Virus record (IMG/VR): IMGVR_UViG_2603880148_000002
Span: 1-31,815 of that record
Length of the DNA: 31,815 nt
Origin: a virus
Taxonomy: Duplodnaviria > Heunggongvirae > Uroviricota > Caudoviricetes
Reading direction: 5' to 3' (one strand)
Both the position numbers and the translations under genes were made by a program. Each line of letters begins with the position of its first letter. Position 1 is the stretch's first letter. Under the pieces are notes generated by a model. The model was not told where the DNA came from. It made no database searches and worked only from the letters and a program-made list of their open reading frames with translations. This document shows, in pieces, positions 7,629 through 7,917 of the stretch.

Positions 7629-7717
7629 CCCAACCCGGGGGGGTATCATCCGGCGTAAAAAACGATCGCTTTGGACACCGCGCCCCCTCTCACGCAGAGA
7701 AAAAATTCCCGTTTCAG

Positions 7718-7846
7718 GCCAGTTAACATGTTAACTGGCTGCCCAGGCATTTTTGCGGTTTTTATCTTTATTATTCAGTTTGTTGTGCGAAAAAAATGTT
7801 AACTGGCTTTTTCAGAAAATGTTAACCAGGCAGCAGTTAACATTTG
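7718..7846. repeat. cluster of GTTAAC-containing repeats including a perfect 22-bp palindrome; candidate cos/terminase recognition region
   Basis: GCCAGTTAACATGTTAACTGGC (7718-7739) is a perfect palindrome; related copies ATGTTAACTGGC (7796-7807), ATGTTAACCAGG (7819-7830) and CAGTTAACATTTG (7834-7846), all in the HNH-terS intergenic region. Confidence 0.4.
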
Positions 7847-7917
7847 CGGCATGAGACGCCGGGAAAAATGGGCTGAACCATACCCGGCTGAGTGCGTTCT
7901 GGACCCGGGAGGAGGCT

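Follow-up and report, generated by a model that had tools for sequence, protein, structure and literature searches.

The window analysed here is the whole of a 31,815 nt stretch of DNA from a tailed phage (Caudoviricetes; IMG/VR virus record IMGVR_UViG_2603880148_000002), and the subject is the cohesive-end (cos) site predicted to lie in its non-coding gap at 7629-7917. Upstream of the gap is the gene for an HNH endonuclease (7263-7628, + strand; PF01844, 31.1 bits, cut-off 21.4), a nuclease that assists packaging in HK97-type modules. Downstream is terS, encoding the small terminase TerS (7918-8481, + strand; PF03592, Terminase_2, 36.1 bits against a cut-off of 26.1), with an N-terminal helix-turn-helix (HTH) at residues 2-57. 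The large terminase gene terL, encoding ATPase and nuclease, follows at 8478-10139 (+ strand; PF03354, 44.3 bits, and PF20441, 40.0 bits, both above cut-off), with a protease/capsid fusion and a portal encoded further downstream. The same order of HNH, gap, terS and terL is found in related loci. A sequence-only reading of this DNA had proposed an HK97-type packaging module, and both the gene order and the TerL families support it.

Matches of 93-99 % identity to the region come from 93 phage records, including Stx1a-, Stx2a- and Stx2c-converting long-tailed phages (Stx, Shiga toxin), and one Escherichia coli chromosome matches it at 100 %. Among the 93 are BP-4795, 2851, 1717, YYZ-2008 and phi330 (genus Pankowvirus). 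Of 5426 complete E. coli genomes, 1287 have the cos region. It is likely, on the sequence comparisons described below, that 7634-7845 is the cos site of a prophage of the lambdoid long-tailed Stx-phage (Pankowvirus) type, and that it is built in two layers, a cleavage core and a repeat array. As an HK97-type, HNH-dependent cos it would be ordinary, but it is unmapped for a medically relevant phage group, the lambdoid long-tailed phages of the window type having Stx1a-, Stx2a- and Stx2c-converting phages among them. No published cos map for Pankowvirus or the Stx siphophages was found in the searchable literature.

Repeats in the HNH-terS gap and their island copy

The sequence-only reading had drawn attention to a perfect 22-bp palindrome between HNH and terS, and this is present. 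It is GCCAGTTAACATGTTAACTGGC at 7718-7739 (no strand), with 11-nt arms and zero gap, as seen both by reading the sequence and by a repeat search, and it is the sole perfect palindrome of at least 14 bp in the 31.8-kb window. By calculation, about 0.008 palindromes of this length, 22 bp, would be expected in it, and one of 200 shuffles attained this length. One qualification is needed, as the outer GCC/GGC arms vary among close relatives and in an island of E. coli 042. The conserved element is the 16-bp AGTTAACATGTTAACT at 7721-7736, which consists of two head-to-head copies of the octamer ATGTTAAC.

The GTTAAC cluster that had been reported with the palindrome is real, with a repeat unit longer than was stated, this octamer being present in five copies. 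GTTAAC itself starts at 7722, 7730, 7798, 7821 and 7836 in the gap, five of the 11 copies in the window, where 4.5 would be expected and where 11 was attained in none of 100 shuffles. All five copies of ATGTTAAC in the window lie inside 7722-7843, in the orientations -,+,+,+,- (0.53 expected; five attained in 0/100 shuffles), and with its flanks the site has the consensus AA(A/C)ATGTTAAC(T)G. After the palindrome comes a T-rich spacer with T-tracts about every 10 bp (7740-7793, no strand), which has kept its length and diverged in sequence relative to the E. coli 042 island. It is followed by site 3 (7794-7803, + strand) and site 4 (7817-7826, + strand), both reading AAATGTTAAC and identical in the island, and by site 5, also AAATGTTAAC, on the minus strand (7836-7845). 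BLAST homology with the island copy stops at 7845. The terS leader (7846-7917, + strand), with the Shine-Dalgarno sequence GGAGGAGG at 7908-7915, is absent from the island copy and, as judged from this comparison, is outside the shared cos.

The island in question is a phage-inducible chromosomal island (PICI)-like element of about 9.6 kb between cspD/yljB and clpS of E. coli 042 (NZ_CP042934.2, about 939.3-948.9 kb; loci L092, 9313-19000, and L091, 1455-1930), and the variant is found in about 50 complete E. coli genomes. Its annotation runs through an integrase, an HTH regulator, a YlcI/YnfO protein, an Icd-like protein, a RepA helicase and a ClpP-like protease/capsid fusion to a full copy of the cos, with the core and all five GTTAAC sites; no HNH, terS or terL gene is annotated in it. 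Between the window (7713-7845) and the island there are 31 mismatches, none of which falls in the 30 positions of the GTTAAC sites (hypergeometric P = 1e-4), and the spacers are about 70 % identical. Because homology ends directly after site 5, the functional unit would be approximately 7634-7845.

Satellites carrying the cos of a helper phage, of the SaPIbov5 and EcCICFT073 types, have been described (PMC6092414). The E. coli 042 island, known here from its sequence alone, resembles them in having a cos copy, no annotated terminase gene and a capsid-protein homologue. Its cspD-clpS site is the att core ATGATAGTTAT, which is listed for the islands EcCIIHE3034 and EcCI18098 (PMC6092414, Table S1). 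Identity with the published 'EcCIO42' could not be established, the att site alone matching the listed islands. A helper link through the capsid was also discarded, as the protease-capsid fusion of the island has no detectable similarity to that of the window.

The conserved core and the predicted cut

A scan with TerL of species-representative genomes gave 80 loci, from Enterobacterales, Burkholderiales, Pseudomonas, Xanthomonadales and others, in which the TerL homologues are 55-84 % identical; the 80 genomes represent many proteobacterial genera and some metagenome-assembled genomes labelled as other phyla. An nhmmer profile built from related loci has a single match in the window, at 7634-7714 (+ strand; E 1.6e-14), comprising a G-run, the cut site and an A-tract block. 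The profile matches 78 of the 87 sequences searched, invariably on the terL strand and 320-1270 nt upstream of terL (mostly 340-760), and many of the related loci have an HNH homologue upstream of the core. The general architecture of the gap in this family is a G-run, approximately 33-35 nt, a GGACAC-like sequence, ten variable bases, C(T/G)CACGCAGAGAAAAAATTCCC, and then the ribosome-binding site and start of terS. The presence of this core, together with the termini of four phage records in it or within a few nucleotides of it, bears out the earlier placement of cos between HNH and terS.

These termini also locate the cut. In the record of phage Bcep176, CGCACGTTCC is present at both ends, and its columns align one-to-one with window 7679-7688; in linear records, a cohesive end shows up as such a terminal repeat of ten bases. 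The ends of the Xanthomonas phage DMF5-T1 record abut the same ten columns, and those 10 nt are missing from it, as is expected when end repair removes a 3' overhang. Two further records, vB_E184 and PhiBt-E264.1, are opened 4 and 2 nt, respectively, to the left of the Bcep176 cut columns. Bcep176 and its relatives (Stanholtvirus) and DMF5-T1 share the core of the window, with TerL proteins 58-60 % identical to that of the window. On the basis of these four sets of record ends and of the junction in HK97, cosN is predicted at 7679-7688 (+ strand), with the 10-nt cohesive end CGCGCCCCCT in the context GGACAC|CGCGCCCCCT|CTCACGCAGAG, and this position is probably correct to within 2 nt. The sequence-only reading had held that the cleavage site could not be read from the sequence; this is revised, since homology places the cut outside the repeat array, upstream of it and 30 nt before the palindrome.

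HK97 has 10-nt 3' overhangs, and its HNH protein stimulates cleavage (PMC9410871; for the latter also PMC11331095). It is like the window in the order of HNH (gp74), cos, terS (gp1) and terL (gp2) and in having a TerL of the same Pfam families. A G9 run ends 42 nt before the right end of the HK97 record and is followed by 32 nt and then by ..ATGAC|CGCCGCCAAA at that end, with an A/T-tract shortly past the left end. By eye, the G-run, the GAC|CGC junction and the A/T-tract appear common to HK97 and the window; the nhmmer core profile does not match HK97 cos. The HK97 overhangs (PMC9410871) and the overhang lost from DMF5-T1 suggest 3' polarity in the window also. The nick would then follow 7678 in the bottom strand and 7688 in the top strand. 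In the proposed mechanism, TerL, aided by the adjacent HNH protein, would make these staggered nicks 10 nt apart at 7679-7688 and so leave 10-nt 3' overhangs as in HK97.

This first layer, 7634-7714, would be an ancient core composed of the G-run, the cohesive end CGCGCCCCCT and the A-tract block. The G-run GGGGGGG (7637-7643, + strand) is among the best conserved columns of the alignment and lies 35 nt upstream of the predicted first nick, a place like that of lambda cosQ; by this analogy it may be a termination or positioning element, and a role in termination is speculation. Directly downstream of the cut is the A-tract block CTCACGCAGAGAAAAAATTCCC (7689-7710, + strand), which is kept with either N-terminal type of TerS and in the E. 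coli 042 island. Speculatively, it may be read by the C-terminal ring of TerS, as in HK97, or by TerL or HNH.

Two other ways of placing the cut were set aside. The record ends of close relatives are unusable, as the records that are 93-99 % identical are prophage-derived or arbitrarily opened; the phi330 record ends inside terS, and its note is generic. No record in this set begins or ends at a physical genome terminus, and the close relatives thus give no direct evidence of the cut. The published 10-nt 3' overhang of VarioGold, CGATCGGTTC, resembles CGATCG at 7664-7669, but it is absent from the cos core of any fetched locus, and Bcep176 sets the cut 10-15 nt further to the right; VarioGold is kept solely as an example of 10-nt 3' ends.

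Within the phage group, the predicted cohesive-end columns of phi330 (locus L001, about 3050) read CGCCCCCCGT rather than CGCGCCCCCT, and the overhang sequence thus varies among phages that are otherwise 96 % identical. In the PPompW prophages (LC567822.1; locus L003, 1546-3004), the IS110-family element ISEc20 abuts the cos G-run at about window position 7640, leaving five G. Upstream, these prophages lack the lysis genes and HNH, and their terS, terL and GTTAAC array are intact; the prophages are probably unable to cut cos.

GTTAAC sites and the N-terminal type of the small terminase

Residues 2-57 of TerS match positions 1-56 of the 141 in the PF03592 profile, and this N-terminus is the Terminase_2 module, that of the family of solved SF6-type small terminases. 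In comparisons with Protein Data Bank sequences the top matches are 4zc3, 2cmp and 3zqp, all solved small-terminase DNA-binding domains, and are weak (E 0.19-0.78). In pac-type small terminases of the SF6 kind, the HTH motifs are on the exterior of the ring (PMC9410871). Headful (pac) packaging, as in SF6 and SPP1, does not agree with the finding of an HNH gene and of a cos core shared with fixed-end phages, and because of this context the TerS of the window would share with SF6 and SPP1 the DNA-binding module and not the packaging mode. The C-terminal domain of TerS is common across the family.

A relation between the sites and the N-terminal module is apparent in the related loci. In Salmonella phage FSL SP-016, the entire 106-nt gap between HNH and terS aligns with window 7630-7735, and the near-palindrome GTAAACATGTTAAC, which aligns with the palindrome of the window, contains the terS start (ATG TTA ACA, Met-Leu-Thr). 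This is the norm for the family, in which an inverted pair GTTAA-N4-7-TTAAC, typically of the form TTGTTAATGGCTTTAACAG, lies over the terS start; Bcep176 has a single inverted GTTAATGGCTTTAAC pair there, in contrast to the five sites of the window, which are off the start codon. At least two GTTAA/TTAAC sites are present within 50 nt after the core in 45 of the 51 loci with a TerS N-terminus like that of the window (M(A)LTxKKRxF.., HTH), and in none of the 26 with another N-terminus (Fisher P = 4e-15, phylogenetic relatedness being ignored). Mostly, the other N-terminus (group B) is MAGVKGKSGG..GARPGAGRKPK, an Arg/Gly/Lys-rich, AT-hook-like arm that replaces the HTH. Many group B loci have (A)ATCA(GC)AAATGG instead, likewise over the terS start codon. 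DMF5-T1 has a different TerS type and no GTTAAC, whereas the window has the HTH-type TerS with a GTTAAC array. Examples of group B are loci L016, L020, L044 and L041 (about 2570-3000), where the arm is paired with (A)ATCA(GC)AAATGG repeats lying across the start codon of the same terS; a group B cassette consists of the Arg/Gly-rich arm and AATCAAATGG repeats.

One and the same cos core is found with both TerS types, and the C-terminal domain is common to the group B TerS proteins examined, the TerS of the window being similar to them in this part. On a neighbour-joining tree of TerL the two types interleave, with at least 14 changes by parsimony. Because of this interleaving, the association rests on many independent events, in which site and N-terminal module moved together. 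Codon choice is further evidence. For the Leu codon within the site, 38 of 45 loci use TTA, which makes up 1.9 % of the Leu codons in terL of the same loci, where the mean GC content is 60.6 %; the codon in question is CTG where the site is off the start codon, as in the window, Paraburkholderia (L011) and Morganella (L082). The GTTAAC sites thus appear to be held at the nucleotide level against codon bias. The co-variation with TerS type, the codon constraint and the retention of the sites in the island support the earlier suggestion that the repeats are a recognition array for the small terminase, as far as can be judged from sequence.

The window departs from the family norm. Its palindrome contains no ribosome-binding site, has no coding role, and lies about 180 bp from the GTG that now starts terS, and the array has gained three further sites. 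The GTG at 7918 is also the start annotated in related records, and terS of the window opens with Met-Leu-Thr (GTG CTG ACA). Ancestrally there would have been one inverted pair over the terS start, and in the E. coli lineage this pair would have come to lie about 180 bp from the new GTG, with three sites added. A hydrophobic open reading frame (ORF) of 24 codons, MLTGCPGIFAVFIFIIQFVVRKKC (7728-7802, + strand), begins at an ATG within the palindrome; it was rejected as a conserved gene, its counterpart in the E. coli 042 island stopping after four codons, and is probably a side effect of the shift of the terS start. In Paraburkholderia silviterrae (L011, 2219-2500) the gap measures 280 nt, contains GTTAAAG in three additional copies and leads to a new start, GTG GCG CTG ACC; this would represent an independent uncoupling of the site from the terS start.

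The second layer of the proposed cos, 7718-7845 on the first-packaged side, would comprise five AA(A/C)ATGTTAAC sites, two in the palindrome and three 60-110 bp downstream. The TerS ring is predicted to bind these sites through its peripheral N-terminal HTH modules and so to position the terminase, as gpNu1 does at cosB of lambda. Speculatively, the T-tract spacer at 7740-7793, with its conserved length, may bend the DNA so that both clusters reach one ring. In lambda, cosB has the order R3-I1-R2-R1, is bound by gpNu1 with integration host factor (IHF), and anchors the terminase next to cosN. The array would be the functional equivalent of cosB, anchoring the terminase beside the cut. The likeness is in short repeats in both orientations that occupy about 120 bp on the first-packaged side, flanked by the cut and by the small-terminase gene; the lambda side of this comparison is established knowledge, and in the window the five ATGTTAAC sites at 7722-7843 lie downstream of the predicted cut, as a cosB of the lambda type would require, with binding by TerS a prediction. 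In lambda the overhangs are 5' and 12 nt long, there is no HNH, TerS is of a different family, and an IHF site lies among the repeats. In contrast, TerS of the window belongs to PF03592 rather than the Nu1 family, homologues indicate 10-nt ends, and the IHF consensus WATCAANNNNTTR is not found with up to one mismatch in 7629-7917. The resemblance to cosB is a functional analogy, not homology.

For the family as a whole, the balance of evidence slightly favours a recognition site that is built into the first codons of terS. Site and N-terminal module would have been swapped as a cassette at least approximately 14 times relative to TerL, with the cut constant, and the Stx lineage would be a derived state, in which the site has been freed, is present in five copies, and has been copied as an array by an island. 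With the site built into the first terS codons, the DNA-binding N-terminal module and its DNA would form one compact cassette. We have not found this pattern described, in which the site is embedded in the start codon and, unlike the constant cleavage core, is exchanged jointly with the N-terminal module. It offers a natural experiment on small-terminase specificity, as the variable module and its site travel together. The cut at 7679-7688 and the five-site array are likewise testable targets, for recognizing packageable prophages and mobilisable satellites or islands, and for cos plasmids or transduction assays.

Several points weigh against this interpretation. The polarity and the exact nicks are transferred from phages with TerL proteins 55-60 % identical, and record ends may follow convention, the two Burkholderia records deviating by 2-4 nt from Bcep176. 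The Fisher and binomial P values take no account of phylogenetic relatedness. Six loci with a window-like TerS have one exact site within 50 nt after the core, three of which keep a second half-site with one mismatch. The spacing of the sites and the outer arms of the palindrome are not strictly conserved, and the spacing of sites 3 and 4 in the island copy is changed by a 1-nt indel. End-mapping or binding experiments for the window phage or its genus were not found in the searchable literature.

The A-tract block at 7689-7710 could also be the primary site of TerS, with the GTTAAC sites accessory, either architectural, through bending, or a low-affinity set that stabilizes a wrapped complex, because the TerS of HK97 reads an A-tract near the cut. 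Its minimal site, of 15 bp and with an A-tract, is 15-29 bp from the cut and is read by way of the ring tunnel and an Arg clamp (PMC11331095). No other part of the core is as well conserved as the block of the window, which accompanies both N-terminal types of TerS, and these types share the C-terminal domain. However, this would leave unexplained why the GTTAAC pair switches whenever the N-terminal module does. HK97 also differs in having a TerS without the Terminase_2 HTH module of the window, a single site and no GTTAAC repeats. This reading is unlikely, and the two would be compatible if TerS used its shared C-terminal ring for the A-tract and its N-terminal module for GTTAAC.

Binding of the repeats by a factor other than TerS, such as the HNH protein, a host nucleoid protein or a phage regulator, which would control terS expression or DNA architecture, is quite improbable. 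In most relatives the motif does lie over the terS start codon and ribosome-binding region, a typical place for an operator, and there is a single weak promoter-like match on the minus strand (7825-7796). The motif nevertheless tracks the N-terminal type of TerS, not the HNH or TerL lineage, and the E. coli 042 island keeps five sites with no terS gene after them. The absence of the IHF consensus from the gap likewise argues against such a binder.

Nor are the extra copies likely to be functionless relics of duplicated terS 5' ends (ATG TTA AC, Met-Leu-Thr), left behind by an insertion that displaced the start codon; the chance of this seems small. Duplication is plausible as the origin of the sites, given that ATGTTAAC is the terS start in FSL SP-016 and several enterobacterial relatives and that terS of the window still encodes Met-Leu-Thr. 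Relics would not, however, be expected to be spared all 31 of the window-island mismatches while the spacers diverged, nor to have expanded independently in Paraburkholderia L011, and the short ORF from 7728 is not conserved.

A function of the palindrome in RNA, as a hairpin that terminates transcription past HNH or serves as an operator for terS translation, is highly improbable. Although it folds as a 10-bp hairpin (centroid -12.8 kcal/mol) with T-rich sequence within about 10 nt, this is not unusual for its composition (z = -1.5), typical family members form a very weak hairpin that is no better than shuffles (centroid -3.4 kcal/mol, z = 0.18), the outer arms that extend the stem are not conserved, a terminator scan of the region gave no terminator-like site, and a search of Rfam with 7400-8100 gave no match save a chance-level snoRNA (E = 6.9). 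A hammerhead ribozyme, suggested by papers on Bcep176, was also rejected, as the published ribozyme sequence differs from that of the cos core and there is no Rfam match in the region.

Other features of the window

A DUF3950 (YlcI/YnfO family) gene at 7021-7281 on the minus strand has a 19-nt overlap with the start of HNH, and the annotation of the E. coli 042 island likewise includes a member of this family. The portal ORF (12352-15423, + strand) encodes 1023 aa, with the portal domain at residues 54-382 and a C-terminal extension in which domain matches are faint and scattered. In the late-regulation region, upstream of the lysis genes, there are a tRNA gene at 432-505 (+ strand) and an STnc100 small RNA at 1205-1394 (+ strand; Rfam, 132 bits).

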